Shown here piece after piece: positions 3,602 to 54,142 of a DNA stretch of 64,000 nucleotides. Below the pieces are notes generated by a model. It saw nothing but the letters and a program-made list of their open reading frames with translations, had not been told where the DNA came from and searched no databases. Within the stretch, counting starts at the first letter, position 1, and the number at the start of each line of letters is the position of its first letter. The stretch covers positions 9,557 through 73,556 of the forward strand of contig JACQVN010000034.1 of the NCBI GenBank assembly GCA_016209735.1. The letters are read 5' to 3'. The position numbers and the translations under genes were made by a program. Origin of the DNA: Candidatus Methylomirabilota bacterium. GTDB taxonomy: Bacteria; Methylomirabilota; Methylomirabilia; Methylomirabilales; 2-02-FULL-66-22.

Positions 3602-4981
3602 ATGGACGTCGACTCTCGCTTTGAACGGGTCACGGTGATGGGCGCGGCCGGGAAGATGGGGTGCGGCATCTCCTGGCTGCTGGCCCGGGAAATGGCGCGT
3701 CTGAAGAACCGTCCGGAACACCGGGGGAAGACCTATCGGCTGACCCTCATCGATGTCCGGCAGGAGGGGGCGAAGGAGCTCCTGGGATACCTCGAGACCC
3801 AGTCGGCCAGGCAGGCGAGCCGGAACATCGCGGCCCTGCGGTCCCTGTACCGGGGGCACCAGGGCGTCACGACGGACGAGCAGGTCGCCCGGGCCTTCGT
3901 GGCCGATACCCTCTCCGTCATCCGCACGGGGACGGATTGTCGTGAGGCCCGGGGCTCGCGGCTTCTGTTTGAGGCTGTCCCGGAGACGGAACGGCTGAAG
4001 ATCGAGACGCTTCGACGGCTCAAGGAGACGTGCCCCGAAGACGCCTTCTTCCTGTCCAACACGTCCTCCATTCCGATCCAGTTCCTGGATCGCGAAGCCG
4101 GCCTCGAAGGGCGCATCGCCGGGTTCCACTTCTACAACCCCCCGGTCGTGCAGGAGCTGGTCGAAGTGATTTCGGCCCGGACCACCCGCCCGGAACTTGC
4201 CGAGCTGGCCCGGGAAATCGGCCGGCGGCTCGGCAAGCGGCTGGTGCCCTCGCGGGATATCGCCGGCTTTATCGGCAACGGCCACTTCATCCGCGACGCG
4301 CTCCACGCCGTGCGCGAAGCGGAGCGGCTGGGCGACCGCTTCGACGAGTGGGAAGCGATCTACGCCCTGAACCGCGTCAGCCGGGAGGGCCTGCTCCGTC
4401 CGATGGGGATTTTCCAGCTCATGGACTATGTGGGGATCGACGTGTTTTCGTCGATCCTCTCGGTGATGACCAGGCATATCGAGGGAGAAGCGTTCGGAGC
4501 CGATCTGATCGACCGGATGGTCTTGAAGGGGGTGCTGGGCGGCCAGCGGCCCGACGGATCGCAAAAAGACGGGTTCTTCCGATACGAAGGGCGCCAGCCC
4601 GTCTCTGTCTACGCCCTGGACCGGGAGGGCTACGTGCCCCTCCAGGCCCTGGACCGGGTCGACCGCGCGCTGGGACCGCTGGCCGGGGTCGAGTGGAAAG
4701 AGGTGCGGGGGGGGCCGGACCGCGCCCGCACGCTCGGAGAGCATTTTGCGCGCCTGGCCTCCATGGATACCCTGGGGGCCCGGCTGACCATCGCCTACTT
4801 GCAGGCGTCCCGGCGCATAGGGGAAACGCTCGTGGCGCACGGCATCGCCGAATCGCCGGAGGACGTCAACACGGTTCTGACGAGCGGCTTCCACCATCTC
4901 TACGGTCCGTTCAACGCGTATGTGCAACTGCCCCAAGCTCTGAGTCCGGGGTCGGGCACGGGGCCTGGGACCTGGATCTGA
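3602..4981 (+). CDS. 3-hydroxyacyl-CoA dehydrogenase family protein (long form)
   Basis: 459 aa. Rossmann start VTVMGAAGKMG, the 3HCDH-type segment FHFYNPPVVQELVEVI, and an additional C-terminal domain. Confidence 0.85.
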   Translation: MDVDSRFERVTVMGAAGKMGCGISWLLAREMARLKNRPEHRGKTYRLTLIDVRQEGAKELLGYLETQSARQASRNIAALRSLYRGHQGVTTDEQVARAFVADTLSVIRTGTDCREARGSRLLFEAVPETERLKIETLRRLKETCPEDAFFLSNTSSIPIQFLDREAGLEGRIAGFHFYNPPVVQELVEVISARTTRPELAELAREIGRRLGKRLVPSRDIAGFIGNGHFIRDALHAVREAERLGDRFDEWEAIYALNRVSREGLLRPMGIFQLMDYVGIDVFSSILSVMTRHIEGEAFGADLIDRMVLKGVLGGQRPDGSQKDGFFRYEGRQPVSVYALDREGYVPLQALDRVDRALGPLAGVEWKEVRGGPDRARTLGEHFARLASMDTLGARLTIAYLQASRRIGETLVAHGIAESPEDVNTVLTSGFHHLYGPFNAYVQLPQALSPGSGTGPGTWI

Positions 4982-5000
4982 GGCAGCACGAGACGGCCCC

Positions 5001-6359
5001 ATGATCACGTTTGGAGAAGGAAACCTTCGGATTCCCCGGTTCGGGAAGCCGGTGTATATCGTCGCGGGCGGGATGACGGACTTCCGGAAGACCTACCCGG
5101 AGAAAGCCACGGAAGAGCTCGCCGCGGAAGCCCTCAACATGGCGAGCCTCGAAAACGACCTCAAGGTTTCGATGCCAGAGTTCAAACGGTTGGTCAACTT
5201 CTGCGTCTATTCGCAGTTTGCCGACCATTTCGGCGACCAGCTCCTGGCCGCTGCCCGCGTGCACGACGCCCTGGGCTTCGACCCGCTGGGGAACTTCGAG
5301 GTGAAGACCGGCGGGGCCACGGGCGGCCACGCCGTCCTGGCCGGCGCCATGGCCGTGGCCTCGGGGTATGCGGACGTGGTGCCGGTGGTCGGCTGGGAGC
5401 GCATGGACGAGGTGTCCACCCGACAGGGGAACTCCTACATCGCCTCGGCCGCCTGCAAGAATTTTGAATCCGAACTGGGCTGGATGTACGCCAGCTATTA
5501 TGCCCTGATGGCCCAGCGATATCTGTACGAGAACCAGGTGCCCAGGGAAACGCTGGCGAAGATCACGGTCAAGAACCACCGCTACGCCTGCTCATCGCCT
5601 TTCTCCCAGAATCCGATGAAGCTCACGGAGCAGGAGGTGCTGGAGAACAAGATGGTCTCCGATCCCCTGAGCTTTCTGGAGTGCTGCCTGATGAGCACGG
5701 GGGCGGCCGCCCTGGTGCTGGCCGATGAAGCCATGGCCTTCAAGCTGACGGATCGGCCGGTGCGGCTGGCCGCGATCTGCTCCGGCACCCACACCCTGCG
5801 CACGGCGGACCGGCGGCCGATGGCAGTGCTGCGTCTGCCTCACGAGCCCGAAAATCTGTACCGGGACCGCAAGTGGGACTGGCCGGGGTTCAGCGCATTC
5901 TTGGCCACGCGCATGGCGGCGTACCTGGCCTACCAGATGGCCGGCATCGGGAACCCCCTCGAGGAGCTGGACCTGCTGGAGACCCACGACGCCTTCACCA
6001 TCAGCGACATTCAAACCTACGAGGATATCGGCCTGCGGCCGTACGGACGGGGGCGGGAATTCATCGAGAGCGGAGAGGCCTACCTGGGCGGCAAGCTGCC
6101 GACCAACCTGTCCGGCGGACTGCTGGGGGCCATGCACGCCGTGGGTGCCACCGGCATCTTTCAGATCGTCGAGGTCCTGTGGCAGCTTCAAGACAAGTGG
6201 GCCAAGTTTCACGCGGATCCGAAGATGTGGGAGCGCTTCGGCAAGGTCATGCCGGGCGATATCGAGAACCTTCAGGTGCCAAATGCCAGGCGCGGCGCCG
6301 CCATCAGCCACGCCGGGACCGGCAGCCACGTGACCATGGCGATTCTGGAGCGAGCCTGA
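5001..6359 (+). CDS. thiolase-like protein (SCP-x / archaeal-type acetyl-CoA acetyltransferase)
   Basis: 452 aa of the thiolase superfamily. It sits immediately upstream (10-nt gap) of a DUF35 OB-fold gene, the characteristic pairing for this subfamily. Confidence 0.8.
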   Translation: MITFGEGNLRIPRFGKPVYIVAGGMTDFRKTYPEKATEELAAEALNMASLENDLKVSMPEFKRLVNFCVYSQFADHFGDQLLAAARVHDALGFDPLGNFEVKTGGATGGHAVLAGAMAVASGYADVVPVVGWERMDEVSTRQGNSYIASAACKNFESELGWMYASYYALMAQRYLYENQVPRETLAKITVKNHRYACSSPFSQNPMKLTEQEVLENKMVSDPLSFLECCLMSTGAAALVLADEAMAFKLTDRPVRLAAICSGTHTLRTADRRPMAVLRLPHEPENLYRDRKWDWPGFSAFLATRMAAYLAYQMAGIGNPLEELDLLETHDAFTISDIQTYEDIGLRPYGRGREFIESGEAYLGGKLPTNLSGGLLGAMHAVGATGIFQIVEVLWQLQDKWAKFHADPKMWERFGKVMPGDIENLQVPNARRGAAISHAGTGSHVTMAILERA

Positions 6360-6368
6360 GGAGGCTCC

Positions 6369-6842
6369 ATGTCCGTCGAACTGGTCGCTCCGGGGTGCGA
6401 GGTGTTGAACCTCTCCCCCCTGGTCATCGAGAATGTGAAGGATTACTTTCACGTCCACACCTACGGCGGTCTCACCAGATTCTTCGAGGGGCTGCGCGCC
6501 TCGAGGCTGCTCGGCACGCGGTGCACGAATCGCGCCTGCGAGGAACACCGGATCTGGCTGCCGCCGCGCGCCTATTGCCCGGACTGCCTGCGGCCCATGG
6601 AATGGGTCGAAGCGCCGCAGAGGGGCGAGATCTTTACGCATACCACCGTGGAGTATCCGGGCAGCAACTTCAAGCTCTCCACGCCGTGTCCGCTGATTTC
6701 GGTGTCTCTGGAGGGGGTCTGCACCAAGATGATGTCCTACCTGAAGGACGGCAGGCCGGAGATCGGCATGAAGATCCGGGCGTGGTTTCGGACCGAGAAT
6801 CCGACCCATACGATCCTCGACCTCGCCTGGGTGCCGGCGTGA
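6369..6842 (+). CDS. DUF35 OB-fold / zinc-ribbon protein (thiolase partner)
   Basis: 157 aa. Cys pairs CTNRAC...CPDC are followed by an OB-fold-like region. Gene order with the preceding thiolase-like gene supports the call. Confidence 0.8.
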   Translation: MSVELVAPGCEVLNLSPLVIENVKDYFHVHTYGGLTRFFEGLRASRLLGTRCTNRACEEHRIWLPPRAYCPDCLRPMEWVEAPQRGEIFTHTTVEYPGSNFKLSTPCPLISVSLEGVCTKMMSYLKDGRPEIGMKIRAWFRTENPTHTILDLAWVPA

Positions 6843-6972
6843 ATGGAGCGTGGAACAGGGGAGGACAGGATGGGCAGTATGGAACGACAGACAACGGAGA
6901 AGGGGAGATCGGTCCGCCTCGCCCCTCGCGATCCCGTCGATCCTGCCTCTCCCGGTTCATGCGGGTAAGACC

Positions 6973-9900
6973 ATGACGGGTCACATCGCATACACGCCGC
7001 GCCACCAGGTCCGGTTCGTCACGGCGACCGCGCTGTTCGACGGCCACGATGCCTCCATCAACATCATCCGCCGCCTGCTCCAGCGCGCCGGGGCCGAGGT
7101 CGTCCACCTGGGCCACAATCGCTCGGGGACCGAGATTGTCGATGCGGCGATCCAGGAAGACGTCCAAGCCATCGCCGTCAGCTCCTACCAGGGGGGACAT
7201 AACGAATTCTTCCGCTATCTGGTGGATCTGCTGCGCGAGCGAGACGCGTCGCACATCCAGCTCTTCGGGGGGGGCGGCGGCGTGATCGTGCCCGGCGAAA
7301 TCCGGGAGCTGGAAGCCTACGGCGTGACCAAGATCTATTCGCCGGAGGACGGCCGCCGCCTGGGCCTCCAGGGCATCATCCGCCACATGCTGGAACGCGC
7401 AGACGCATTCCTCCCGCCTGTCAGCCCGGACGGCGACCTCTCCGGTCTCGGCACCCGGAGCGTCCGCCAGATCGCTCGCTTGATCACGCAGGCGGAAGGG
7501 CAGGTCGATGGGCCTGCCCCTGCCCGCGGCCTCTCGCCGACGGTGCTGGAGGCCCTCGCGCGCCGGGCCGCCGACCGCCGCTCTGCCGTCATCGGCATGA
7601 CGGGGACCGGGGGGGCGGGCAAGAGCTCGCTGGCCGACGAGCTCATCCGGCGGCTGCTGGGGGACTTCCCGGAGATTCACCTCGGGGTCCTTTCCGTCGA
7701 TCCGAGCAAGCGCAAGACCGGCGGCGCCCTGCTGGGGGATCGGATTCGTCTGAATGCGATACAGTCCCCCCGGGTCTACATGCGGTCCCTGGCCACCCGG
7801 CGCTCGGAGTCCGAGCTGCCGGAGGCCATGCGCCAGGCCATTCAGATCTTGCGGGCCGCCGGCTTTGACCTGATCTTCGTCGAGACGAGCGGCATCGGGC
7901 AGGGGGACTCGGCGGTCCTCGACGTCTCGGATGTGAGCCTCTACGTCATGACCCCCGACTACGGCGCCGCCTCCCAGCTCGAAAAGATCGACATGCTGGA
8001 CCTCGCCGACCTGGTGGCTGTCAACAAGTTCGACCGGCGGGGCGGTGAGGACGCCTTGCGCGCCGTGCGCAAGCAGATCCGGCGGAACCGGGATATTTCG
8101 TATGGCGTCCCGGACGTGGAGCTCCCGGTCTTCGGCACCATCGCCAGCCAGTTTGGCGACGTGGGGGTGACGGCCCTCTACCTCAGCTTGCTGGGACGCC
8201 TGGAGAGACTCCTCGGCGCGTCCCTCCGGTCCTCGCTCCAGGTGCCCGCGGGCGCCGTGGCCGGCGAGCGGCACCCCATCATCCCGGAGATGCGCTCCCG
8301 CTATCTCGGTGAGATCGCGGAGACGGCCCGCGCCCGGCGCGCCTGGGTGGAACGTCAGGTGTCGGTCGCCCGCCGGCTGTACCGGCTCGACGGCGCCGCC
8401 CGGGAGTGCGAGGAGCCTGCGATCCGGCAAGCCATCCAGAGCCGCTTCGAGGCGCTCCGTCAGGATCTGGACCCCGAGTGCTGGCAGCTCATCCAGGACT
8501 GGGGGAAACTCCAGCAGGCGTATGCGGGCGACAGCTTCGGCTTCGAGGTTCGGGGGCGCCAGGTTTCGGCCCAGACCACGACCCGAACCCTCTCCGGCAC
8601 CCGCATCCCCCGCGTGGCCCTGCCGCGGTTCGAGGACTGGGGCGAGATTCTCAGGTTCCGGCTGAACGAAAACGTGCCCGGCGCCTATCCCTACACGGCG
8701 GGGGTCTATCCCTTCAAGCGGAGCGAGGAAGAGCCTCGCCGCCAGTTTGCAGGCGAAGGGGGGCCCCAGCGCACCAACCGGCGGTTCCACTACCTGTGCC
8801 GGAATGACAGGGCAAAACGCCTTTCCACCGCCTTCGACAGCGTGACCCTGTACGGCGAGGAGCCGGACGAGCGGCCCGACATCTACGGAAAGATCGGCGA
8901 GGGGGGGGTCTCCGTCGCCACCCTGGATGACATGAGGACGCTTTTCGCCGGCTTCGACCTGACGGACCCCCTGACCAGTGTCTCCATGACCATCAACGGG
9001 CCGGCCCCGACCATACTCGCCATGTTCTTCAACACCGCCATAGACCAGGAGGCGAAGAAGTTCGAGGGGGCGCACGGTCGAGCGCCCGACCGCGAGGAGC
9101 GAGAGCGCATCCAACACGAGACGCTACGGGTGGTCAGGGGCACCGTGCAGGCGGACATTCTGAAGGAGGATCAGGCGCAGAACGAGTGCATCTTCTCGAC
9201 CGAGTTTGCCCTCCGGATGATGGGGGACGTGCAGCAGTACTTCATCGATCGGCGGATCCGGAACTTCTACTCGGTGTCCGTCTCGGGCTACCACATCGCC
9301 GAGGCCGGGGCCAATCCCATCACCCAGCTCGCCTTCACGCTCGCCAACGGATTCACCTATGTGGAGTACTACCTGGCCCGCGGGATGCCTATCGATGGTT
9401 TCGCGCCCCATCTCTCTTTCTTCTTCAGCAACGGCCTCGACCCGGAGTACTCGGTGCTGGGACGCGCCGCGCGGCGGCTCTGGGCCAGGGTGTTGAAGGA
9501 GCGGTACGGCGCCAACGAGCGCAGCCAGAAGTTCAAGTACCACATCCAGACCTCCGGCCGCTCGCTCCACGCCATGGAGATTCAGCTCAACGACGTCCGG
9601 ACCACATTGCAGGCCCTCACGGCCATGTATGACCAGTGCAACTCGCTCCATACCAACGCCTATGACGAGGCCATCACCACCCCCACCGCCGAGTCGGTGC
9701 GCCGGGCGGTGGCGATTCAGCAGATCATCGATCGCGAGTTCGGGATGACCAGGAACGAGAACCCGCTGCAGGGCTCCTATTTCATCTCGGAGCTGACCGA
9801 CCTGGTGGAAGAGGCGGTGCTGGCGGAATTCGACCGCCTGAACGCGCGCGGGGGCGTGCTGGGAGCCATGGAGCTTCAGTACCAGCGGAGCCGGATCCAG

Positions 9901-10242
9901 GAGGAGTCCCTCCTGTACGAGCGCAAGAAGGACAGCGGAGAGCTGCCCATCATCGGTGTCAATACCTTTCTGGACCCGGATGCCCCGGAGGGGCCGGGAG
10001 TCGAAAAAGCGGCGCTCAGCCGCGCCACGCCCGAGGAGAAACGGGCGCAAATCGAGGGGCTGCGCGCCTTTCAGAGACGGCATCAGGCGGAAGCGCCGGA
10101 AGCGCTCGAGCGTCTGAAGAGGGCCGCGCGGGCCGGCGGCAACATCTTCGCCGAGCTGATGGATACGGTCCGCGCCGCCAGCCTCGGCCAGATCACCCAC
10201 GCCCTGTACGAGGTGGGGGGTCAATACCGGCGTGCCATGTAA
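6973..10242 (+). CDS. icmF: fused isobutyryl-CoA mutase (B12-binding domain + MeaB-like GTPase + mutase catalytic domain)
   Basis: The track ORF is 6850-10242; I start it at ATG 6973 (MTGHIAYTPRHQVRF). B12-binding FDGHDASINIIRR, P-loop GTGGAGKSSL with NKFD, then a methylmalonyl-CoA-mutase-like barrel (YPYTAGVYPFKR...). Confidence 0.9.
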   Translation: MTGHIAYTPRHQVRFVTATALFDGHDASINIIRRLLQRAGAEVVHLGHNRSGTEIVDAAIQEDVQAIAVSSYQGGHNEFFRYLVDLLRERDASHIQLFGGGGGVIVPGEIRELEAYGVTKIYSPEDGRRLGLQGIIRHMLERADAFLPPVSPDGDLSGLGTRSVRQIARLITQAEGQVDGPAPARGLSPTVLEALARRAADRRSAVIGMTGTGGAGKSSLADELIRRLLGDFPEIHLGVLSVDPSKRKTGGALLGDRIRLNAIQSPRVYMRSLATRRSESELPEAMRQAIQILRAAGFDLIFVETSGIGQGDSAVLDVSDVSLYVMTPDYGAASQLEKIDMLDLADLVAVNKFDRRGGEDALRAVRKQIRRNRDISYGVPDVELPVFGTIASQFGDVGVTALYLSLLGRLERLLGASLRSSLQVPAGAVAGERHPIIPEMRSRYLGEIAETARARRAWVERQVSVARRLYRLDGAARECEEPAIRQAIQSRFEALRQDLDPECWQLIQDWGKLQQAYAGDSFGFEVRGRQVSAQTTTRTLSGTRIPRVALPRFEDWGEILRFRLNENVPGAYPYTAGVYPFKRSEEEPRRQFAGEGGPQRTNRRFHYLCRNDRAKRLSTAFDSVTLYGEEPDERPDIYGKIGEGGVSVATLDDMRTLFAGFDLTDPLTSVSMTINGPAPTILAMFFNTAIDQEAKKFEGAHGRAPDREERERIQHETLRVVRGTVQADILKEDQAQNECIFSTEFALRMMGDVQQYFIDRRIRNFYSVSVSGYHIAEAGANPITQLAFTLANGFTYVEYYLARGMPIDGFAPHLSFFFSNGLDPEYSVLGRAARRLWARVLKERYGANERSQKFKYHIQTSGRSLHAMEIQLNDVRTTLQALTAMYDQCNSLHTNAYDEAITTPTAESVRRAVAIQQIIDREFGMTRNENPLQGSYFISELTDLVEEAVLAEFDRLNARGGVLGAMELQYQRSRIQEESLLYERKKDSGELPIIGVNTFLDPDAPEGPGVEKAALSRATPEEKRAQIEGLRAFQRRHQAEAPEALERLKRAARAGGNIFAELMDTVRAASLGQITHALYEVGGQYRRAM

Positions 10243-10269
10243 GTTTTTGCGCTTCGGGCGCAAAAACTT
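10241..10269. repeat. solo hairpin AAGTTTTTGCGC-TTCGG-GCGCAAAAACTT (same core as the type-A terminal hairpin)
   Basis: Read directly. It overlaps the icmF TAA stop codon (10240-10242). Confidence 0.85.
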
Positions 10270-10299
10270 GAGTGGGAGATCATTCACGAGGTCCCGACT

Positions 10300-12783
10300 A
10301 TGGATGCTCTCGCGGCGACTTACGGGGGGCTCTCTGGCTGGCCCGGGGCGGTGGGAGTCCTGGCCATCGTCCTGCTGGCATGTGTCCTCGGCTTCACCGG
10401 GGCGCCGGCGTGGCTCTGGACGCTGTTGGCCGCGGCGGCCCTCTGGGGCCTCGGGGCGCCAGCCTGGCTCTGGATCCCGTTTGGCCTCCTGGCGCTGCTC
10501 CTCAACGGTCCGCCGATCCGCCGGAGGCTGGTCTCGGCCCCGATGATGGCGGTCCTGAAAAAGGGGAATTTCCTCCCCGCGATCTCCGAAACCGAGCGCA
10601 CGGTCATCGAAGCCGGCAGCGTGTGGATCGAGGGGGAGCTTTTCTCGGGTCAGCCGGATTTCAGGCGGCTGCTGAACGAGCCCTATCCCGATTTGACCGA
10701 CGAGGAGCGGGCATTCCTCGACGGGCCGGTGGAAGAGGTCTGCCGCATGGCCGACGATTGGGGGATTTACGTGGAGAGAGGCCTGCCGCCGGAGATATGG
10801 GAGTATCTCAGTCGGCAGCGATTCTTCGGGATGATCATTCCGAAGGCGTATGGCGGGCTCGGATTCTCGGCCTCGGCCAACAGCGCCGTGGTGGGGAAGC
10901 TGGGCTCGCGGTCTCTCCCGTTGAGCTTCATGGTCATGGTGCCCAACTCCCTGGGGCCTGCCGAGCTTCTGATCCATTACGGGACGGAGGAGCAGAAGAA
11001 CCACTATCTCCCGCGTCTGGCACGCGGGGATGAGGTGCCCTGCTTTGCCCTGACCGAACCGGGCGCCGGCTCGGATGCGGGGGGCATCAGGGCCAGCGGT
11101 GTCATCTTCAAAGGCGAGGACGGCCGCTTGTATCTCCGGCTGAACTGGCGGAAGCGCTACATCACCCTTTCGGGCCTCTCCACCGTGCTGGGCCTGGCCT
11201 TCAAGCTCCGGGACCCGGAGAACTTCCTGGGCAGGGGGGAGCACCTGGGCATCACCTGTGCCCTGATCCCCACCGCCACGCCCGGCGTGGCGGTGGGCCG
11301 GCGGCACGATCCCATGGGCGTGCCCTTCTACAACGGCCCGACCGAAGGGCAGGACGTGGTCGTGCCCTTCGACTGCATCATCGGAGGCGCTGCCGGCGCC
11401 GGCAGTGGCTGGCGCATGCTGGTGGAATGCCTGGCGGCCGGCCGCGGCATCTCGCTCCCGGCGACGGCCGCCGCCGGGACCAAGTTCGTGGCCCGCGTCG
11501 CCGGCGCCTACGCCACCGTCCGGAAGCAGTTCGGCCTCTCGATCGGCAAGTTCGAAGGCGTGGAGGAACCGCTGGCGCGTCTGGGGGGGTTCGCCTACCT
11601 GATGGAAGCGGCCCGCCGCTACACCTGCGGCGCCCTGGATCGGGGCGCGAAGCCCGCCGTGGCGACGGCGACGGCCAAGTACAATCTCACGGAGCTGTAC
11701 CGGAAAGCCGTGAGCGACGGGATGGAGATTCTCGCCGGCACCGCCATCATGCGCGGCCCCCGCAACCTCCTCGCCCACAGCCATGACTTGACCCCCATAC
11801 TCGTCTCCGTCGAAGGGGCCAATATCCTGACGCGCACGCTCATGGTCTTCGGGCAGGGCGCGGTTCGGTGCCACCCCTATGTCTACCGAGAAATCCAGGC
11901 GCTTTCGACCGGGGATGTGAAGGGATTTGATCGTGCGCTCTGGGGACACGTCGGCCACGGGGTGCGCAACGTTTTCCGCTCCATCCTGTTGAGCCTCTCG
12001 CGCGGCCGCCTGGCCGGCTCGCCCGTCGGCGGCCCCGCCGCCCGCTATTGCCGGAAACTGGCGTGGGCGTCGGCCTCGTTCGCCCTGCTGTCGGATATCG
12101 CTCTGTGCACGTTCGGGGGGAACTTGAAGCGGAGGGGAAAGCTCACCGGACGCTTTGCCGATATCTTGTCCTGGATGTATCTTGGCGTGGCCACGTTGCG
12201 CCGGTTCGAGGCCGAGGGGCGCCGCGCCGGGGACCTGCCCTTCCTGCACTGGTCCATGCAATATACGCTGGCGCAGATCCAACAAGCCTTCGACGGGTTG
12301 CTCCAGAACCTGAACATCCCCGGGCTGGGCTGGTTCATGCGGGGCCCGGTCGCCCTCTGGTCGCGCGTGAACTCCATCGGGAAGATGCCGTCCGACGAGT
12401 TGGGCAGCGAGATTGCCCGGGCCATGCAGAGGCCCGGCCCCCAACGGGATGCCTTGACCGCCGGCATCTACGTGCCGTCCGATCCCCACGAGGCATTGGG
12501 CAGGCTGGAGCGTGCCTTCACGCTTTCCTGGGAAGCCGAGGCGGTGGCCGGCAGGATCCAAGAGGCGATCCAGGCGGGGAAGTTGCCCAAGGAGAGGCCC
12601 GAGCAGCTCGTGGCAAAGGCCGTCGAGACGGGAATCCTCAGCCAGGAAGAGGCGCAGGTGATGTTCCAGGCGGAAGAGGCGCGGAGCGATGCCGTCCAGG
12701 TGGATAGCTTCACGCCGGAAGAATACCTGTCCGGAACTCCATCCGCGCCGCGCAAGGTCGAATTCGTGAGCGGGCGGGCATGA
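10300..12783 (+). CDS. fadE: large FadE-type acyl-CoA dehydrogenase with N-terminal membrane segment
   Basis: 827 aa. Two hydrophobic N-terminal helices, an acyl-CoA dehydrogenase core (CFALTEPGAGSDAG) and a long C-terminal extension, as in enterobacterial FadE. Confidence 0.85.
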   Translation: MDALAATYGGLSGWPGAVGVLAIVLLACVLGFTGAPAWLWTLLAAAALWGLGAPAWLWIPFGLLALLLNGPPIRRRLVSAPMMAVLKKGNFLPAISETERTVIEAGSVWIEGELFSGQPDFRRLLNEPYPDLTDEERAFLDGPVEEVCRMADDWGIYVERGLPPEIWEYLSRQRFFGMIIPKAYGGLGFSASANSAVVGKLGSRSLPLSFMVMVPNSLGPAELLIHYGTEEQKNHYLPRLARGDEVPCFALTEPGAGSDAGGIRASGVIFKGEDGRLYLRLNWRKRYITLSGLSTVLGLAFKLRDPENFLGRGEHLGITCALIPTATPGVAVGRRHDPMGVPFYNGPTEGQDVVVPFDCIIGGAAGAGSGWRMLVECLAAGRGISLPATAAAGTKFVARVAGAYATVRKQFGLSIGKFEGVEEPLARLGGFAYLMEAARRYTCGALDRGAKPAVATATAKYNLTELYRKAVSDGMEILAGTAIMRGPRNLLAHSHDLTPILVSVEGANILTRTLMVFGQGAVRCHPYVYREIQALSTGDVKGFDRALWGHVGHGVRNVFRSILLSLSRGRLAGSPVGGPAARYCRKLAWASASFALLSDIALCTFGGNLKRRGKLTGRFADILSWMYLGVATLRRFEAEGRRAGDLPFLHWSMQYTLAQIQQAFDGLLQNLNIPGLGWFMRGPVALWSRVNSIGKMPSDELGSEIARAMQRPGPQRDALTAGIYVPSDPHEALGRLERAFTLSWEAEAVAGRIQEAIQAGKLPKERPEQLVAKAVETGILSQEEAQVMFQAEEARSDAVQVDSFTPEEYLSGTPSAPRKVEFVSGRA

Positions 12784-12800
12784 AGCCCGCCCCTACGCAA

Positions 12801-13054
12801 CCTGGTTTTTGCGCTGCCGCGCAAAAACCAAAACTGAAAGGCATCAGGGAACCTCGCTGGGATTGGCCGGGAGTCATCAACGACCACCCTAGAAGGGGGT
12901 ACCCCCGAGGGGTTCCCTCGATGGAACACGACCCGTATCGCAGGGGTCACCTTCCACCACGGGTTCCCGTTATGAGACCCATCGGAAGCCCAGGGCAGAA
13001 AATTTGTTGCTCCACCAAGTTTGGTTTTTGCGCGCGCAGCGCGCAAAAACCAGG
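12801..13054 (-). repeat. type-A hairpin-bounded repeat element, full copy (inverted relative to copies at 29137 and 53888)
   Basis: Bounded by CCTGGTTTTTGCGC-TGCC-GCGCAAAAACC (12801-12829) and GGTTTTTGCGCGC-GCA-GCGCGCAAAAACCAGG (13023-13054). Its reverse complement aligns along the full length with 29137-29389. Confidence 0.9.
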
Positions 13055-13165
13055 GGAGGGGTTTATCCCCTCCCGCTTCAGCGCATTGTAGGAAGAGCGG
13101 GTGCTGGGCGAAAGGCCCAATGAGACCGCTTCTTCTTCGTGCCCTTCGTGTTCTTCGTGGTGAAT
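13052..13165 (+). repeat. intergenic repeat module E (AGGGGAGGGGTTTATCCCCTCCC hairpin ... GGAAGAG ... GCGAAAGGCCCA ... CTTCGTG nonamer run)
   Basis: It aligns with 19284-19395 and, inverted, with 53752-53887. Confidence 0.8.
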
Positions 13166-15198: not shown

Positions 15199-15237
15199 GA
15201 AGTCTAGCCCGGTCCGCCGGAGGCGGATACGAAATGA

Positions 15238-15300
15238 CAATGACCAATGACCAATGGCCAATGACCAAAAATCAATGACCAATGATCAATGACCAATTAC
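15238..15300. repeat. tandem heptamer array, 9 units of CAATGAC (variants CAATGGC, CAAAAAT, CAATGAT, CAATTAC)
   Basis: Read directly: CAATGAC CAATGAC CAATGGC CAATGAC CAAAAAT CAATGAC CAATGAT CAATGAC CAATTAC. It is a circular permutation of TGACCAA, the complement of TTGGTCA. Confidence 0.9.
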
Positions 15301-15742: not shown

Positions 15743-16770
15743 TGCTCCCCGTCGCGTCGGAGGCTCCCCGGACTGTGGCCGTGGTGGGGGCCGGGGCGTG
15801 GGGGACGACCCTGGCCACCATCCTGGGGGACCGCTACCCGCGGGTCAATCTCTGGGTCTTCGAGGCCGACCTTGCCGAGGCAATCCAGTGCCGCCGCGAG
15901 AACGGCGTCTATCTCCCGGGCGTTCGCATCCCGGATCCCGTCCGGGCCACTTCCTCCCTGGCGGAGGCCCTGACGGATGTCGGGCTGGTCCTGTTCGTGG
16001 TCCCTTCCCACGTGTTCCGTCGGATCGCTTCTGCGGCCGCCGCTCATCTTCCCTCGAAGGCGCTGGTGGCGAGCGCCACCAAGGGCATCGAGGTCGAGAC
16101 GCTGGCGACCATGTCCGAGATCCTGGCGGAGGTTCTCCCCCCGCTTGACCGTGCCCGCCTGGCGGTCCTGTCCGGTCCCAGTTTTGCCCAGGAGGTGGCC
16201 CGCCGGCGTCCGACAGCGGTGGTAGCCGCGGCGCGCGATCCGTCGGTGGCGGGGGCGCTTCAGCGCGCGGTGAGCGGGGGGAGTTTCCGAGTCTATGCCG
16301 GCCTGGACCCGCTGGGGGTCGAACTGGGGGGCGCGGTCAAGAACGTGATCGCCATTGCCGCCGGGATCGTGGACGGTCTCGAGCTCGGACTGAATGCGCG
16401 GGCGGCGCTCATCACCCGCGGGCTGGCGGAGATGTCCCGTCTGGGCGTTGCCAAGGGGGCGCAACCCGCGACCTTCGCCGGCCTGGCGGGCATGGGGGAC
16501 CTGATCCTCACCGCGACCGGGGACCTGTCGCGGAACCGTCGTCTCGGTATGGCAATCGCCGGGGGGCGACGCTTGGAGGAGATCCTGGCCGGGTCGAAGT
16601 CCGTGGCCGAGGGGGTCAATACCTGCAGGTCCGTCGTGCGGCTGGCGGAGCGCCTGGGCGTCGAGATGCCCATCTCGCGGGCCGTCCACCGGGTCCTGTT
16701 CGAGGGGCAAGCTCCCCGCGAGGCGGTGGTCCAGCTCATGACGCGGGAACTCCGCTTCGAGGGGGAGTAG
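15739..16770 (+). CDS. gpsA: NAD(P)H-dependent glycerol-3-phosphate dehydrogenase
   Basis: Internal ATG 15739 of track ORF 15379-16770 (MMLPVASEAPRTVAVVGAGAWGTTLA...). The protein is GpsA-like throughout (GAVKNVIAIAAG, NRRLG). Confidence 0.92.
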   Translation: MMLPVASEAPRTVAVVGAGAWGTTLATILGDRYPRVNLWVFEADLAEAIQCRRENGVYLPGVRIPDPVRATSSLAEALTDVGLVLFVVPSHVFRRIASAAAAHLPSKALVASATKGIEVETLATMSEILAEVLPPLDRARLAVLSGPSFAQEVARRRPTAVVAAARDPSVAGALQRAVSGGSFRVYAGLDPLGVELGGAVKNVIAIAAGIVDGLELGLNARAALITRGLAEMSRLGVAKGAQPATFAGLAGMGDLILTATGDLSRNRRLGMAIAGGRRLEEILAGSKSVAEGVNTCRSVVRLAERLGVEMPISRAVHRVLFEGQAPREAVVQLMTRELRFEGE

Positions 16771-16774
16771 AGGT

Positions 16775-16801
16775 GGTTTTTGCGCGCTCAGCGCAAAAAC
16801 C
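16775..16801. repeat. solo type-A terminal hairpin GGTTTTTGCGCG-CTC-AGCGCAAAAACC
   Basis: Read directly. It lies 4 nt after the gpsA TAG stop and just before the panE start. Confidence 0.85.
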
Positions 16802-16811
16802 AGGGGGACCC

Positions 16812-18053: not shown

Positions 18054-19037
18054 ATGCCGGCCAACCTCACTCCCCAATACCTCGAAGCGGAACGGCGGTT
18101 CCGCACGGCCAAAACGGCCGAGGAGAAGCTGACGGCGCTGGAGGAGATGCTCGCGGTCATCCCCAAGCACAAGGGGACCGAGCATATCCGGGGCGACCTC
18201 AAGCGCCGCCTGGCCAAGCTCAGGTCCGAGGCCGAGCAGGCCAGCCGCCGCCGTGGCGGATTCTCCATGGCCGTGGAGCGGGAAGGGGCGGGCCAGGTGG
18301 TCCTGGCGGGTCCGACCAATGTCGGGAAGTCAGCCCTGGTACGCCGCCTCACCAATGCCCAGACCGAGGTGGGCGAATACCCCTTCACCACCCGCCGGCC
18401 GATCGCCGGGATGATGCCCTTTGTGAATATCCAGATTCAGTTGGTGGATCTTCCGGCGGTGAGCCGGACCTACATGGAGCCGTGGGTTCCGAGCCTCATC
18501 CGGCCTGCCGACCTCGTCCTGGTCGTAGCCGATCTCGCAAATCCGGCCGTCCTGGAGGATCTGGAAGAGGTGCTGACGGTTCTGGAGGAAGCCAAGCTGC
18601 GCCTGGGAGGCGACGCGACGGCGGCTGAGGCGCCGGGCTGGGTCCGCATTCCGGCGCTCCTCGTCGGGAACAAGGCGGAGGAGGCCGACGCCGAGGCGGC
18701 GCTGGAGGTACTCCGCGCCGCCCATGCGGCGCGCTTTCCCGTCTACGGCGTCTCGGCGATGACCGCCCTGGGGCTGGAGACGCTCCGGCGGGCCATCTAC
18801 GACGGTCTGGGCATCGTGCGGGTGTACTGCAAGGCTCCCGGCAAGGAGCCGTCCATGAGCTCGCCCGTCGTCCTGCCGCGCGGCAGCACGGTGGTGGAGA
18901 TGGCGGGAGCCATTCACAAGGACTTCGCGCGGCAGCTCCAGTACGCGCGCATTTGGGGGTCGAGCAAGTTCGACGGGCAGCGCGTCCAGCGGGATTACGT
19001 CGTTCAGGAGGGGGACATCATCGAGCTCCACATATAG
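18054..19037 (+). CDS. OBG-class GTPase of the DRG type with C-terminal TGS domain
   Basis: 327 aa. DRG-like N-terminal helix (KHKGTEHIRGDLKRRLAKLR), G1 GPTNVGKSALV, G4 NKAE, and a TGS-like C-terminus ending GDIIELHI. Confidence 0.85.
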   Translation: MPANLTPQYLEAERRFRTAKTAEEKLTALEEMLAVIPKHKGTEHIRGDLKRRLAKLRSEAEQASRRRGGFSMAVEREGAGQVVLAGPTNVGKSALVRRLTNAQTEVGEYPFTTRRPIAGMMPFVNIQIQLVDLPAVSRTYMEPWVPSLIRPADLVLVVADLANPAVLEDLEEVLTVLEEAKLRLGGDATAAEAPGWVRIPALLVGNKAEEADAEAALEVLRAAHAARFPVYGVSAMTALGLETLRRAIYDGLGIVRVYCKAPGKEPSMSSPVVLPRGSTVVEMAGAIHKDFARQLQYARIWGSSKFDGQRVQRDYVVQEGDIIELHI

Positions 19038-19231
19038 CCTGAGTTATTCACGAAAAGGCCATCTCACCACGAAGGACCTGCCTGCGCCGTGCCAAACGCC
19101 TGCCCGTGCGGTGCACCTGTCTGCGTCGCGAACGCGACAGGCAGGCGCAGACAGGCGGCAGGCAGGCACGAACATCACGAAGCGGAGAGGCACGGAGAAC
19201 CGGTCCCGACCCTCACCACCGGGAGGCGGGC

Positions 19232-19395
19232 GGGCATGAAGCCCGCCCCTACGCAACCACAATTGGCCCGAACACGGTCCTCCGTAGGGGAGGGGTTTAT
19301 CCCCTCCCGCTTCAGGGCATTGTCGGAAGAGTGTGTGGAGTGCGAAAGGCCCAGCTAAATCCCTTCTTCGTATCCTTCGTGGTCTTCGTGGGGGA
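19232..19395 (+). repeat. composite repeat: hairpin GGGCGGGCATGAAGCCCGCCC + CTACGCAACC + 27-nt spacer + module E
   Basis: It aligns with 12771-12803 plus 13052-13165, that is, the same module without the type-A element between its halves. Confidence 0.8.
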
Positions 19396-19466
19396 TAGTT
19401 CGGGCGAAAGGCAATGCGGTTTCCAGAGCGTCGGATACGGGCGGTCCGCCTCCGGCGGATTCGAGC

Positions 19467-19524
19467 AAATCCCTCCCGTCCCCCCCTTTGTCAAAGGGGG
19501 GCGAGGGGGGATTTCATCCGGCTG
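19467..19524. repeat. G/C-tract palindrome family C (AAATCCCTCCCGTCCCCCCCTTTG-T-CAAAGGGGGGCGAGGGGGGATTT + CATCCGGCTG tail)
   Basis: Read directly. Related copies lie at 25499-25545 and 50710-50765, and a variant at 53683-53748. Confidence 0.85.
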
Positions 19525-19591
19525 CCGTGGTAAGGAATCCGCCTTGGGGGGGGGTAAAGGACCCGACCAGTTTTCTGCCATGGAAGCGGGT

Positions 19592-25844: not shown

Positions 25845-25942
25845 CCGGTTGCTGGGATGGTCGTTGATGACTCCCGGCGAATCCCACAGGGGCTCCCTGA
25901 TGCCTTTCAGTTTTGGTTTTTGCGCCTAGCGCAAAAACCAGG
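25845..25942 (+). repeat. type-A element, 3' fragment only
   Basis: CTGGGATGGTCGTTGATGACTCCCGGCGAATCCCACAGGGGCTCCCTGATGCCTTTCAGTTTTGGTTTTTGCGC-CTA-GCGCAAAAACCAGG aligns with the last ~95 nt of the full copies. Confidence 0.8.
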
Positions 25943-28954: not shown

Positions 28955-29136
28955 TAGCAGGAACCCTTGTGGTCACGCCGCAGGTGGAATTGACCAGCGA
29001 TCAGGGTAGCGGCGGGGTTTACCCCCGCCCGCGAGGCGATGAATCGGCAGTGCGCATGGCGCATGGCGCATGGCGCGGATTACCCCCGCGCGCAAGGCGG
29101 TGACCTGCAACTCGGCGGGAGGGGATAGACCCCTCC

Positions 29137-29389
29137 CCTGGTTTTTGCGCGCTGCTCGCGCAAAAACCAAACTTGGTGGAGCAACGAATTTTCTGCACTG
29201 GGCTTCCGACAGGTCTCATCAAGGCAACCCATGGTGGGAGGTGGCCCCTGCGATTCGGGTCGTGTTCCATCGTGGGTAACCCTCGCGGGGACCTCCTTCT
29301 GGGGTGGTCGTTGATTACTCCCGCCCAATCCCACCGAGGCTTCCTGATGCCTTTCAGTTTTGGTTTTTGTGCGGCAGCGCAAAAACCAG
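29137..29389 (+). repeat. type-A hairpin-bounded repeat element, full copy (reference orientation)
   Basis: Terminal hairpins lie at 29137-29168 and 29362-29389. Internal helix ATGGTGGGA (29231-29239) / TTCCATCGT (29265-29273). It sits between convergent genes. Confidence 0.9.
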
Positions 29390-29473
29390 CCACGACCCGG
29401 CGATCTTTCGATCGCCGGGTCGTGCTGGTGGGGGCCGAGGGCCCCGTATCGGTTTGCCCTGAATGGCGTGCGG

Positions 29474-39974: not shown

Positions 39975-40028
39975 GGGTCCTCCTTGCTTGGGTCGCCGAA
40001 CAGGTTCCTGAAGCTTAGAGATGTCCGT

Positions 40029-40092
40029 GCTTCGACAAGCTCATGCTTCGACAAGCTCATGCTTCGACAAGCTCATGCTTCGACAAGCTCAG
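40029..40092. repeat. 4 tandem copies of the 16-mer GCTTCGACAAGCTCAT
   Basis: Read directly. It lies between purD and purE. Confidence 0.9.
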
Positions 40093-43159: not shown

Positions 43160-43399
43160 AGGATGCTCGCAGCCTCCCGGTTGAATCCACACAGTTCACC
43201 GCGACTCACAGGCAGGCGAACACGACTGACAGGTGCAATGACCGCACAGAGAGCTAGAATCTGCAGATCGAACCGCGGACCACGGCGGGAGATCGTGCGG
43301 CCCGCCCAAGCCGGGTGATCCCGGACCCCCCTGAAATCATCGGGCGCATGCTACCAAAAAGGCCGCGGCGGCGGCAAGGGCTTTCCTGCTTTTCGCACG

Positions 43400-43474
43400 T
43401 TGGCCGCGCCAAAACCAAAGGGGTCCCCTGGTGCTTTTCAGTTTTGGTTTTTGCGCGTCAGCGCAAAAACCAGG
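43400..43474 (+). repeat. type-A element, internally deleted derivative (half of the left hairpin + last ~40 nt + right hairpin)
   Basis: GCGCCAAAACCAAA-GGGGTCCCCTGGTGCTTTTCAGTTTT-GGTTTTTGCGCG-TCA-GCGCAAAAACCAGG. It abuts the AMMECR1 stop codon. Confidence 0.7.
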
Positions 43475-47650: not shown

Positions 47651-47666
47651 CCGCCCACTTCGCTGA

Positions 47667-47764
47667 CTCATCCAGAGTGGCTGAGGGACTGGCCCGACGA
47701 AGCCACGGCAACCCCGCGCCGGCGGGGTGCCAACTCCTGCCCCGCCTGAGCGGGGAGAGATGAG
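47667..47764 (+). promoter_or_regulatory. SAM-I (S-box) riboswitch aptamer
   Basis: CTCATCCAGAGTGGCTGAGGGACTGGCCCGACGAAGCCACGGCAACCCCGCGCCGGCGGGGTGCCAACTCCTGCCCCGCCTGAGCGGGGAGAGATGAG matches the S-box consensus blocks (YTCATC.AGAG.GGC.GAGGGA.TGGCCC..TGA.GCC.GGCAACC...GGTGC.AA.TCC.GC...AGAGATGAG) with P1 closure CTCATC/GATGAG. Confidence 0.9.
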
Positions 47765-47791
47765 AGGGCGGCGATGGACGCTGTCCGGATG

Positions 47792-47841: not shown

Positions 47842-48075
47842 ATGGTGGCGACGTTGCGGGTGCGCTTGCTGTTCCCGGCAGAGCTGGTGCGGGAGCCGAT
47901 CATCTATTCCGTCGCCACGAGACACCACCTGATTCCCAACCTCCGCAAGGCACGAGTCACGGAGCGATCCGGCGAGGCGATCCTCGACCTCAGCGGGGAT
48001 GAAGAGTCTCTCAGACAGGGGATCGAGTACTTGACGGGCCTGGGGGTGAAAGTCAAACCGCTGCCGATCGAGTGA
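47842..48075 (+). CDS. NIL-domain protein (77 aa), paralogue 2
   Basis: ATG 47842 behind GGGAGGG. MVATLRVRLLFPAELVREPIIYSVATRHHLIPNLRKARVTERSGEAILDLSGDEESLRQGIEYLTGLGV. Confidence 0.75.
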   Translation: MVATLRVRLLFPAELVREPIIYSVATRHHLIPNLRKARVTERSGEAILDLSGDEESLRQGIEYLTGLGVKVKPLPIE

Positions 48076-48091
48076 GGGGGAACGCGAGTCG

Positions 48092-49363
48092 ATGAGCGAC
48101 ATCAAGGGGTTGAAGTGTCGAGAATGCGCCCGGGCCTATCCCATCCGTCCCGTGCATGTCTGCGAGTTCTGCTTTGGGCCCTTGGAGGTCGACTACGACT
48201 ACGCCGCCATCGGGGCCAGGGTGACTCGGCAGAGCATCGAGGCTGGGCCGGCCACCATGTGGCGCTATCGGGCGTTGCTGCCCGTAGACGGCGAGATCGT
48301 GGTGGGGCGCTATTGCGGCCTCACCCCCCTGGTGGAGGCGCGCAATTTGGGCAAGGCCCTCGGCCTCCGCCGCCTCTACCTCAAGAACGACACCGTCAAC
48401 CACCCGACGCTCTCCTTCAAGGACCGGGTGGTGGCCGTGGCGGTGAACAAGGCCCTGGAATTCGGTTTCCCGGTTGTCGCCTGCGCCTCCACCGGCAACC
48501 TGGCCAACTCGGTGGCCGCCCACGCCGCGGAAGGAGGGCTGACGAGCTTCATCTTCATTCCCGCGGACCTGGAGCGGGGGAAGGTGCTGGGGACTTCGAT
48601 CTACGCGGCGAATGTGGTGGCGGTCCGCGGGACCTACGACGAGGTCAACCGCCTGTGCAGCGAGATTGCCGACAAGCACGGGTGGGGCTTCGCCAACATC
48701 AATCTGCGACCGTTCTACGCCGAGGGGTCCAAAACCTTCGGCTACGAGATCGCCGAACAGTTGGGGTGGCGTGCTCCGGATCACGTGGTGGTGCCGGCGG
48801 CGGGGGGGTCCTTGATCACCAAGATCTGGAAGGGCCTGCGCGAGTTTCACGGCCTGCGCCTGATTCCGGGCGTGCCGACGCGGATGCACGTGGCACAGGC
48901 GGCGGGCTGCGCCCCCATCGTGACCGCGGTCAGGGCGAATACCGACCTCATTCGGCCGGTCAAGCAGCCCACGGGGATTGCCAAGTCGCTGGCCATCGGC
49001 AACCCGGCCGACGGGTACTACGCCTTCAAGACGGTCAAGCAGAGCGGGGGGATGGGGGAAGAGGCGACCGACGAGGAGATTGTGGATGCCATGAAGCTCT
49101 TGGCAGCGACCGAGGGAATATTCGCCGAGACGGCCGGCGGGGTCACGCTGGCGGCGACCCGGAAGCTGGTCCAGCAGGGCGCGATCGGGCGGGACGAGGT
49201 GACGGTCGCCTGCATCACCGGGAACGGCCTCAAGACTCAGGAGGCGGTGGCGGCGGCCCTGCGACCCCCGATCCACATCCAGCCGACGCTGCGATCGTTC
49301 GATGAGATCTTGACCCAATCCAACGGCGCCGGCCCGAGCCTGGTGGACGGCAAGGCGGCGTAG
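48092..49363 (+). CDS. threonine-synthase-family PLP enzyme with N-terminal zinc ribbon (candidate homocysteine-forming, MetM-like)
   Basis: 423 aa. CRECARAY...CEFCFG ribbon, PLP-lysine motif HPTLSFKDR, and a ThrC-like fold throughout. The functional guess rests on SAM-riboswitch control and the adjacent sulfur carrier. Confidence 0.85.
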   Translation: MSDIKGLKCRECARAYPIRPVHVCEFCFGPLEVDYDYAAIGARVTRQSIEAGPATMWRYRALLPVDGEIVVGRYCGLTPLVEARNLGKALGLRRLYLKNDTVNHPTLSFKDRVVAVAVNKALEFGFPVVACASTGNLANSVAAHAAEGGLTSFIFIPADLERGKVLGTSIYAANVVAVRGTYDEVNRLCSEIADKHGWGFANINLRPFYAEGSKTFGYEIAEQLGWRAPDHVVVPAAGGSLITKIWKGLREFHGLRLIPGVPTRMHVAQAAGCAPIVTAVRANTDLIRPVKQPTGIAKSLAIGNPADGYYAFKTVKQSGGMGEEATDEEIVDAMKLLAATEGIFAETAGGVTLAATRKLVQQGAIGRDEVTVACITGNGLKTQEAVAAALRPPIHIQPTLRSFDEILTQSNGAGPSLVDGKAA

Positions 49364-53612: not shown

Positions 53613-53682
53613 CGGGCGCCGCGATTGCCCCGCATAATTCACCACGAAGTGGTCATGGGCAGTTTGCCCACTCACGCCTGAT

Positions 53683-53748
53683 GAAGATCCCCCCCACCCC
53701 CCTGCGGCGGGTACCCGGCGGAGGGCAGGGTGAGGGGGGATTTTCTTC
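53683..53748. repeat. family-C-like palindrome variant
   Basis: GAAGATCCCCCCCACCCCCCTGCGGCGGGTACCCGGCGGAGGGCAGGGTGAGGGGGGATTTTCTTC, read directly. Confidence 0.7.
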
Positions 53749-53751
53749 GCA

Positions 53752-53887
53752 GAGCGCGAAGGACACGAAGAAGAAACTTGGATGGGCCTTTCGCACAGCA
53801 CCCGTTCTTCCTACAAGCTGCTCATACGACATGACCGCGGACGGCGGTTTGGTAGGGGCGGGGTATACCCCCGCCCGCAAGGGATAA
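53752..53887 (-). repeat. repeat module E, inverted copy, abutting the type-A element
   Basis: The reverse complement contains GCGGGCGGGGGTATACCCCGCCCCTAC ... CTTGTAGGAAGAACGGGTGCTGTGCGAAAGGCCCA ... TTCTTCTTCGTGTCCTTCGC, aligning with 13052-13165. Confidence 0.75.
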
Positions 53888-54142
53888 CCTGGTTTTTGCG
53901 CGCTGGGCGCGCAAAAACCAAACTGGTTGGGCAAAAGAATTTCTTCCACGGGGCTTCCGATCAGTCCCATCAAGGGGACGCGTGATGGGGGGCAACCCCG
54001 GGCGATTCGAGTCGTGTCCCATCACTTGTAACCCTCGGGGTGACCTCCTTCCGGGATGGTCGGTGTTCACTTCCGGCCTATCCCCCAGAGGTTCCCTGAT
54101 GTGTTTCAAGGATGGTTTTTGTGCGCCAGCGCAAAAACCAGG
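53888..54142 (+). repeat. type-A hairpin-bounded repeat element, full copy (most divergent)
   Basis: Terminal hairpins lie at 53888-53919 and 54114-54142. Internal helix GTGATGGGG (53982-53990) / TCCCATCAC (54017-54025). Confidence 0.9.

Follow-up and report, generated by a model that had tools for sequence, protein, structure and literature searches.

The window, by which we mean the whole 64,000-nucleotide stretch of DNA analysed here, has a G+C content of 66.9% and contains several copies of a repeated element with a full length of about 254 bp. The reference copy spans coordinates 29137 to 29389 on the top strand, between a gene for a PD40-repeat protein and a convergent gene for cytochrome c'. 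Its 5' terminal inverted repeat (TIR) at 29137-29175 reads CC-TGGTTTTTGCGCGC-loop-GCGCGCAAAAACCA-AACT and can pair with itself in a 14-bp stem; an irregular central hairpin of approximately 60 nt follows at 29223-29282, holds a ATGGTGGGA/TTCCATCGT helix, and is conserved for the top strand alone. The 3' TIR at 29351-29389 (CAGTTT-TGGTTTTTGTGCG-loop-CGCAAAAACCA-G) closes the element, and in this copy the last G of CCAGG at the 3' end is missing.

Two further long copies are present, one on the bottom strand at 12801-13054, flanked by genes for an acyl-CoA dehydrogenase and a MacB/FtsX permease, and one on the top strand at 53888-54142, with its 3' end 18 nt upstream of the GTG start codon of a DUF169 gene. 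The three are 253 to 255 bp long; the copies at 29137 and 12801 are 90% identical, and each is approximately 79-80% identical to the copy at 53888. A first-pass annotation of this DNA had recognized all three as full copies, with the same bounds. It had also described a 3' fragment at 25845-25942 and an internally deleted copy at 43400-43474, and we find both with adjusted limits. The first is a 5'-truncated copy at 25850-25942 (top strand) that has kept the 3' TIR together with the 3' third of the core; it lies 9 nt ahead of the ATG in a gene for an M28 peptidase. The second is a 90-bp derivative with two ends at 43385-43474 (top strand), in which a degenerate 5' TIR is followed by 25 nt left over from the 3' core and then by the 3' TIR.

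Two solo hairpins had also been proposed, of which the one at 16775-16801 corresponds to a single TIR unit at 16774-16804 (top strand) that occupies the 42-nt spacer separating a gpsA-like gene, whose stop codon is at 16768-16770, from a panE/ApbA-like gene, whose ATG is at 16813. The other, AAGTTTTTGCGC-TTCGG-GCGCAAAAACTT at 10241-10269, overlaps a TAA stop codon and is a variant look-alike, the family membership of which is doubtful. The chance expectation for the hairpin pattern, as estimated in shuffled sequence, is zero. All of the copies in the window are intergenic, as had been claimed, and their neighbours are housekeeping genes, including those for beta-oxidation, purine synthesis, a PBP, and cytochromes.

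Terminal inverted repeats and target-site duplications

Scanning of metagenomes with the full hairpin pattern identified at least 120 loci, each chosen for one exact hairpin, mostly on sediment and wetland contigs with gene sets rich in ABC transporters. Alignment of about 150 units among the matches listed reveals that the end hairpin is an oriented unit of 33-40 bp, (A)CC-TGGTTTTTGCGC-loop-GCGCAAAAACCA-AAAC, with a fixed polarity in which ACC/GGT forms the outer side and AAA/TTT the inner side. Every long or short element has two such units in inverted orientation with ACC/GGT facing outward, and these constitute TIRs of approximately 35-40 bp whose span takes in CAAACT/AGTTTG and each of which is itself self-complementary, forming a 12-14-bp hairpin. 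The bounds of the element are CCTGG...CCAGG, and the end sequences are CCTGGTTTTTGCGC...GCGCAAAAACCAGG (or CCTGAATTTTGCAC). The first-pass annotation had described these ends as lacking TIRs because each was seen only as a hairpin; the two ends are, however, inverted copies of one oriented unit.

Target-site duplications (TSDs), which had likewise been reported as absent, are also present. Perfect 5-bp duplications lie directly outside CCTGG...CCAGG in seven of the 31 two-ended copies among the matches listed (TACTC, TGGCA, TCACA, TAGTC, TGGAA, TATCA, and TCCTA), and three further pairs of the 31 match at four of five positions; shuffled left/right pairings yield 0% perfect matches and 2.3% at four of five. 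The exact matches are confined to one register, and their count peaks at a length of 5. Four more short elements among the matches listed carry a TSD (TGCGA, TAGGA, TGACA, and TCACA), and in these the inner end is a hairpin-less variant, CCTGAAT.... All 11 of the TSDs among these listed matches start with T and nine end with A, giving a consensus of TNNNA. The three long copies in the window, together with the copies at loci L213 and L219, have no TSD, and we take this to mean that they are older or rearranged. Among the matches listed there is no enrichment of TSDs around solo units, and most of the 78 'solo' units lack both a second end and a TSD.

A duplicated 5-mer of variable sequence is the hallmark of staggered cutting and subsequent gap repair, and Y1/HUH transposition, as in the IS200/IS605 and RAYT systems, makes no target duplication. 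The occurrence of 5-bp TSDs in a single register, together with inverted ends, thus points to a staggered-cut (DDE-type) transposase and argues against a Y1/HUH enzyme.

The self-complementarity of the ends is reflected in their variation: 25 variant positions in the end-hairpin arms are matched by a complementary change on the other arm, with approximately one expected, and this is a clearer structural signal than the covariation in the central hairpin (see below). These compensated changes may reflect selection for folding of the end, a symmetric site bound by a protein, or a quasi-palindrome being corrected from its own template. A second subfamily of short MITEs, represented at six loci, has the 3' unit in common with the family described here, together with a hairpin-less left end and a core of its own, CCTGAATTTTGCACCCCCTCTGATTGACCTTGCCGGAATGGTGCAAGGAATTTT. 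Nine lower-G+C contigs from soil and rhizosphere contain a longer palindrome whose 12-nt arms are identical, GGTACTT...TGGTTTTTGCGCTCTGCGAGCGCAAAAACCA...AAGTACC, which looks like a repeat family of a different organism.

Deletion derivatives, gene boundaries and lineage

A profile search identified many derivatives from which different parts of the core are gone and in which both ends are kept, for example at nine metagenome loci as well as at 43385-43474 in the window, and element lengths range from 45 to 255 bp. Because these derivatives lose the core and keep the ends, the ends are what is needed in cis. Read depth in the source metagenome is 40-56 for single-copy sequence, 130-1,470 for the core, and 4,800-11,800 for the end units, such that end units outnumber long cores about tenfold; the 5' TIR at 29137-29175 has a depth of 100-200 times single copy. 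In the source metagenome, contigs end precisely at 12801/13054, 16775/16804, and 29137/29389, and a 1-kb Logan contig that contains the neighbouring cytochrome c' gene ends in the repeat. The window sequence is present only in groundwater metagenome runs, all of which are DNA. One long metagenome copy (L196:1833-1926) has its core interrupted by a nested insertion of roughly 100 bp with inverted repeats of its own (AGGAGCCGTTACGAAAT...), perhaps a further small mobile element. On the bottom strand at L219:124-476, approximately 650 bp from a long MITE copy, there is a tmRNA gene (Rfam RF00023, 185 bits) that could help to place that host taxonomically.

The elements abut gene boundaries closely. 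Among the matches listed, 35 of 137 outer ends precede the start of an outward-reading ORF with high GC3 by 9-22 nt, typically with CCAGGGGGAACCATG, and in 36 of the 137 the stop codon of an ORF that reads inward is 1-10 nt away, usually in the form TGACC|TGG or TAACC|TGG; for inner sides either placement is seen in just nine of 121 cases among these listed matches. At three loci the target lay over a Shine-Dalgarno-like AGGA or GGGA, and its duplication puts a copy in front of the gene. With more than half of these outer ends no further than about 20 nt from a start or stop codon, and with single units that can constitute a whole operon spacer, the elements are candidates for effects on translation initiation, mRNA stability, or termination.

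Several other features were observed in the flanks. G+C-rich hairpins at 29391-29424 (bottom strand) and 29117-29137 (top strand), together with the element's terminal CTGGTTTTT (a T5 run), score as intrinsic terminators reading into the element; one of these terminator-like hairpins follows the cytochrome c' gene, and both may be incidental. Intergenic mosaics of other palindromic repeats are present at 12760-12800, 13055-13160, 19030-19570, 29000-29136, and 53620-53887, with high depth in the metagenome, and include GCGGGCGGGCATGAAGCCCGCCC, GGGAGGGGATAAACCCCTCCC, GGGGCGGGGTATACCCCCGCCC, and a CACGAAG-rich element of approximately 100 nt. The segment at 19225-19400 is paralogous to the two flanks of the 12801 copy, and the position of the MITE is occupied there by 32 unrelated bases (CC-ACAATTGG...CCGTA-GG). 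Tandem repeats are found at 40028-40091, where a perfect 16-nt unit, TGCTTCGACAAGCTCA, is present in four copies, and at 15233-15297, where the 7-nt AATGACC is present in 9.4 copies.

Comparison with relatives that have the same gene order is informative for the 53888 copy. The spacer between the TPP-enzyme gene and the DUF169 gene is 547 nt in the window, versus 30-33 nt, or 272 nt in one case (L249), in the relatives, none of which has the MITE there. These relatives are metagenome-derived, with TPP enzymes that are 77-88% identical, and those that are named belong to NC10, Rokuibacteriota, or Methylomirabilis; the host, an uncultured groundwater bacterium, is therefore probably a member of the Methylomirabilota resembling Rokubacteria or NC10. 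No end unit was found in the approximately 8-22 kb of each relative that is available, and gain of the element is lineage-restricted. The orthologous spacer in the relatives is too diverged, or is itself too filled with repeats, for a base-exact comparison with an empty site.

Internal structure and the RNA question

The first-pass annotation had noted a 9-bp helix, ATGGTGGGA/TTCCATCGT, that is maintained between copies that otherwise differ, and this observation stands: the helix is part of the central hairpin of about 60 nt, in which 91% of cells are paired among 12 copies, compared with only 37-50% in slid controls. Five pairs (nine cells) are changed on both sides, a level reached by 0-8 of 500 shuffles. 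The 66 G·T cells versus five A·C cells indicate a fold of the top strand, and the alifold consensus energy is −26.7 kcal/mol for the top strand versus −12.0 kcal/mol for the bottom strand. Many of the G·U cells are inherited and not independent, so that the covariation evidence is modest. A covariance model also matches at 29195-29285; the alignment from that model search is mixed with reverse-strand self-hits, and was left out of the counts.

The second helix that had been proposed, GGGGT/ATCCC versus GGGAT/ATCCC, fares less well. It is conserved but without covariation, having only one-sided G-C/G-U/A-U changes and no pairs changed on both sides among 18 copies, and shuffles do equally well. 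The 5' sub-domain has no consensus fold and the 3' domain has no covariation. Searches of Rfam with the window copy and seven other copies, at both gathering and E≤10 thresholds, yielded nothing credible that overlaps the element, and the IS605-orfB and HEARO/omega-RNA families that had been named for comparison gave no match even at E≤10. The sole Rfam match in the window is a SAM-I riboswitch (RF00162, 86.9 bits) at 47665-47766 on the top strand, upstream of a small ORF and a gene for a PLP-dependent enzyme (48050-49363). A search of the 29137 copy for promoter-like sites found none.

The compensated end hairpins and the strand-specific central hairpin are not predicted for a plain double-stranded DNA transposon end, and recall elements that are handled as single strands. 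We consider it unlikely that the end stems and the top-strand central hairpin are functional and not incidental, whether through reading of folded ends by a transposase, an RNA module of the transposon, or co-option by the host. If they were, the transposase might read folded ends and yet still insert with a 5-bp stagger; the long form might carry a regulatory or guide-like RNA module for the transposon; or the host might have co-opted the long form to tune the translation or stability of the genes that it abuts. We know of no description, for any bacterial IS family, of recognition of folded, single-stranded, or cruciform ends combined with 5-bp staggered insertion.

It is quite improbable that the long form is primarily a gene for a structured non-coding RNA, or a cis-regulatory RNA, that is repeated by chance and whose hairpins are elements of RNA processing or stability. 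The pairing and double changes in the central hairpin, its excess of G·U over A·C, and the much better consensus fold of the top strand are all in keeping with such an RNA, as are the proximity of the ends to ribosome-binding sites and the direction of the adjacent genes, which run with the top strand in 13 cases versus five by a crude count. However, relative to the neighbouring genes the copies are found in either orientation, the core is readily lost with the ends kept, and the TSDs show that the DNA itself transposes. The lack of a consensus fold in the 5' sub-domain, of covariation in the 3' domain, of any Rfam match, and of a promoter-like site in the 29137 copy also weighs against it.

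Probable transposition in trans and relation to known elements

No reading frame is kept across copies, and none survives the indels between them; the earlier statement that the element has no ORF is true in this sense. The possibility that the core is a relic of a transposase C-terminus was considered and rejected, since comparison of a profile of the most open frame with 1.84 billion proteins returned only ORFs that read through MITE copies. Three gene calls of 86-313 amino acids (P0123, P0125, and P0126) read through MITE copies in this way, as in ...LTWFLRAGRAKTKLVGQRFFARGF..., and are spurious 'hypothetical proteins' made by the repeat. The description of a dispersed, non-coding, non-autonomous mobile repeat with hairpin-forming ends is borne out.

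An autonomous element with the same ends and a transposase gene was not found in the window (Pfam, approximately 40 genes), at the at least 120 metagenome loci, or in IMG/VR. Among the matches listed, no copy carrying a Y1 tnpA, tnpB, iscB, or RAYT gene between the same hairpins was present in the window or near the units. ORFs recurring near units among those matches were clustered and comprise only ABC-transporter and other host genes, and unit pairs 0.6-3.5 kb apart in the same set have no TSD. A plasmid collection searched in distant mode gave no match, the ISEcp1 transposase gave no match by tblastn against approximately 0.6 Mb, and a scan of genome contigs with an unspecific 17-base pattern returned 116 chance matches in unrelated low-G+C organisms, none of them real.

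We conclude that the repeat is very probably a MITE family moved in trans by a DDE-type cut-and-paste transposase. An enzyme encoded elsewhere would bind the termini and cut with a 5-bp stagger, as DDE-type enzymes do, and insertion duplicates 5 bp of the target with the TNNNA consensus seen among the matches listed. The core of about 190 bp is dispensable, with deletion derivatives as short as 45-100 bp and apparently single units persisting and exceeding the long form about tenfold in number. A target edged by T and A in a G+C-rich (67%) genome, in combination with the presumed loss of insertions within genes, could leave the elements abutting stop codons and ribosome-binding sites. Candidate roles for the structures include recognition by the transposase or a host factor, effects on read-through RNA, and templated correction of palindromes.

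The family is well defined with respect to its boundaries, TIRs, TSD, target preference, and deletion series, and belongs to a phylum known only from metagenomes; a literature search for such repeats in Rokubacteria found no description. Its units break assemblies and create spurious ORF calls, and masking them should improve both binning and annotation. The conjunction of 5-bp TSDs and compensated hairpin ends also provides a concrete case for asking whether a staggered-cut transposase reads folded ends.

The first-pass annotation had likened the ends to those of IS200/IS605 elements and their non-autonomous derivatives, or to REP/RAYT substrates. These proposals depend on the absence of TIRs and TSDs, and the presence of both argues against a Y1/HUH enzyme. 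The less improbable of the two is an origin within the REP/BIME/REPIN-RAYT systems, in which the 30-nt hairpin would be a repetitive extragenic palindrome that exists singly or in inverted doublets (REPINs/BIMEs), and a domesticated RAYT (a Y1 HUH protein) acting on single-stranded hairpins would disseminate it. The units do resemble these, being extragenic palindromes of approximately 30 nt with fixed polarity, with 78 singlets and about 30 inverted doublets among the matches listed, and with stem complementarity conserved through compensated changes; they often lie just after stop codons, and form mosaics with other palindromic repeats as in BIMEs. However, insertion of a REP or REPIN leaves no duplication and requires a Y1/HUH enzyme, whereas 11 elements among the matches listed have exact 5-bp duplications of varied sequence in one register. 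There is also no conserved flanking tetranucleotide such as GTAG, no RAYT gene in the window, and no Y1_Tnp gene in the window or near the units among those matches, and we therefore regard this origin as very unlikely. Scarcely credible is a non-autonomous IS200/IS605 derivative (PATE-like) with subterminal hairpins read on one strand and a core that is a remnant of an omega or guide RNA scaffold: the hairpin ends, the strand-specific central hairpin, and the absence of TSDs from the three window copies are compatible with it, but the ends are inverted repeats of each other instead of two different LE and RE hairpins, other copies do have TSDs and no fixed target tetra- or pentanucleotide is found in the left flanks among the matches listed, no IS605-orfB, HEARO, or omega-RNA match is seen, and there is no TnpA, TnpB, or IscB gene in the window or near any unit among those matches.

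Correia elements (CREE/NEMIS), the MITEs of Neisseria, are 100-250 bp long and non-coding, number in the hundreds, and have a short TSD, TIRs of about 26-40 bp, and length variants that arise by internal deletion; to our knowledge they have no active autonomous partner. The family described here is similarly a short non-coding MITE with copies in the hundreds, with length variants formed by internal deletion, and pressed against gene boundaries. It differs in that Correia elements duplicate TA and not 5 bp (TNNNA), in that each of its TIRs folds into a perfect 12-14-bp hairpin and solitary TIR units predominate over other forms, and in having no sequence similarity to them.

In the IS1380 family, which includes ISEcp1 and has a piggyBac-related DDE transposase, the ends begin with CC and the TSDs measure 4-5 bp, comparable to the CCTGG ends and 5-bp TSD seen here. 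The ISEcp1 left end CCTAGATTCTACGT, which adjoins an annotated IS1380-like transposase, agrees with CCTGGTTTTTGCGC at nine of 14 positions, an agreement that could be due to chance, and the ISEcp1 ends, unlike those described here, are not hairpins. A relationship to IS1380 is thus a possible lead and not a finding.

Tn3-derived inverted-repeat miniature elements (TIMEs; PMC4133298) have a 5-bp TSD, TIRs of approximately 38 bp, and a non-coding core, and they match the present family in its 5-bp TSD, long TIRs, and non-coding core. The ends of Tn3-family elements, however, start with GGGG and are not self-complementary, whereas those described here start with CCTGG. The MITE family is new and the kind of element is ordinary; what is unusual is the combination of self-complementary TIRs, dominance of single units, a central hairpin on one strand, and tight packing at gene boundaries.
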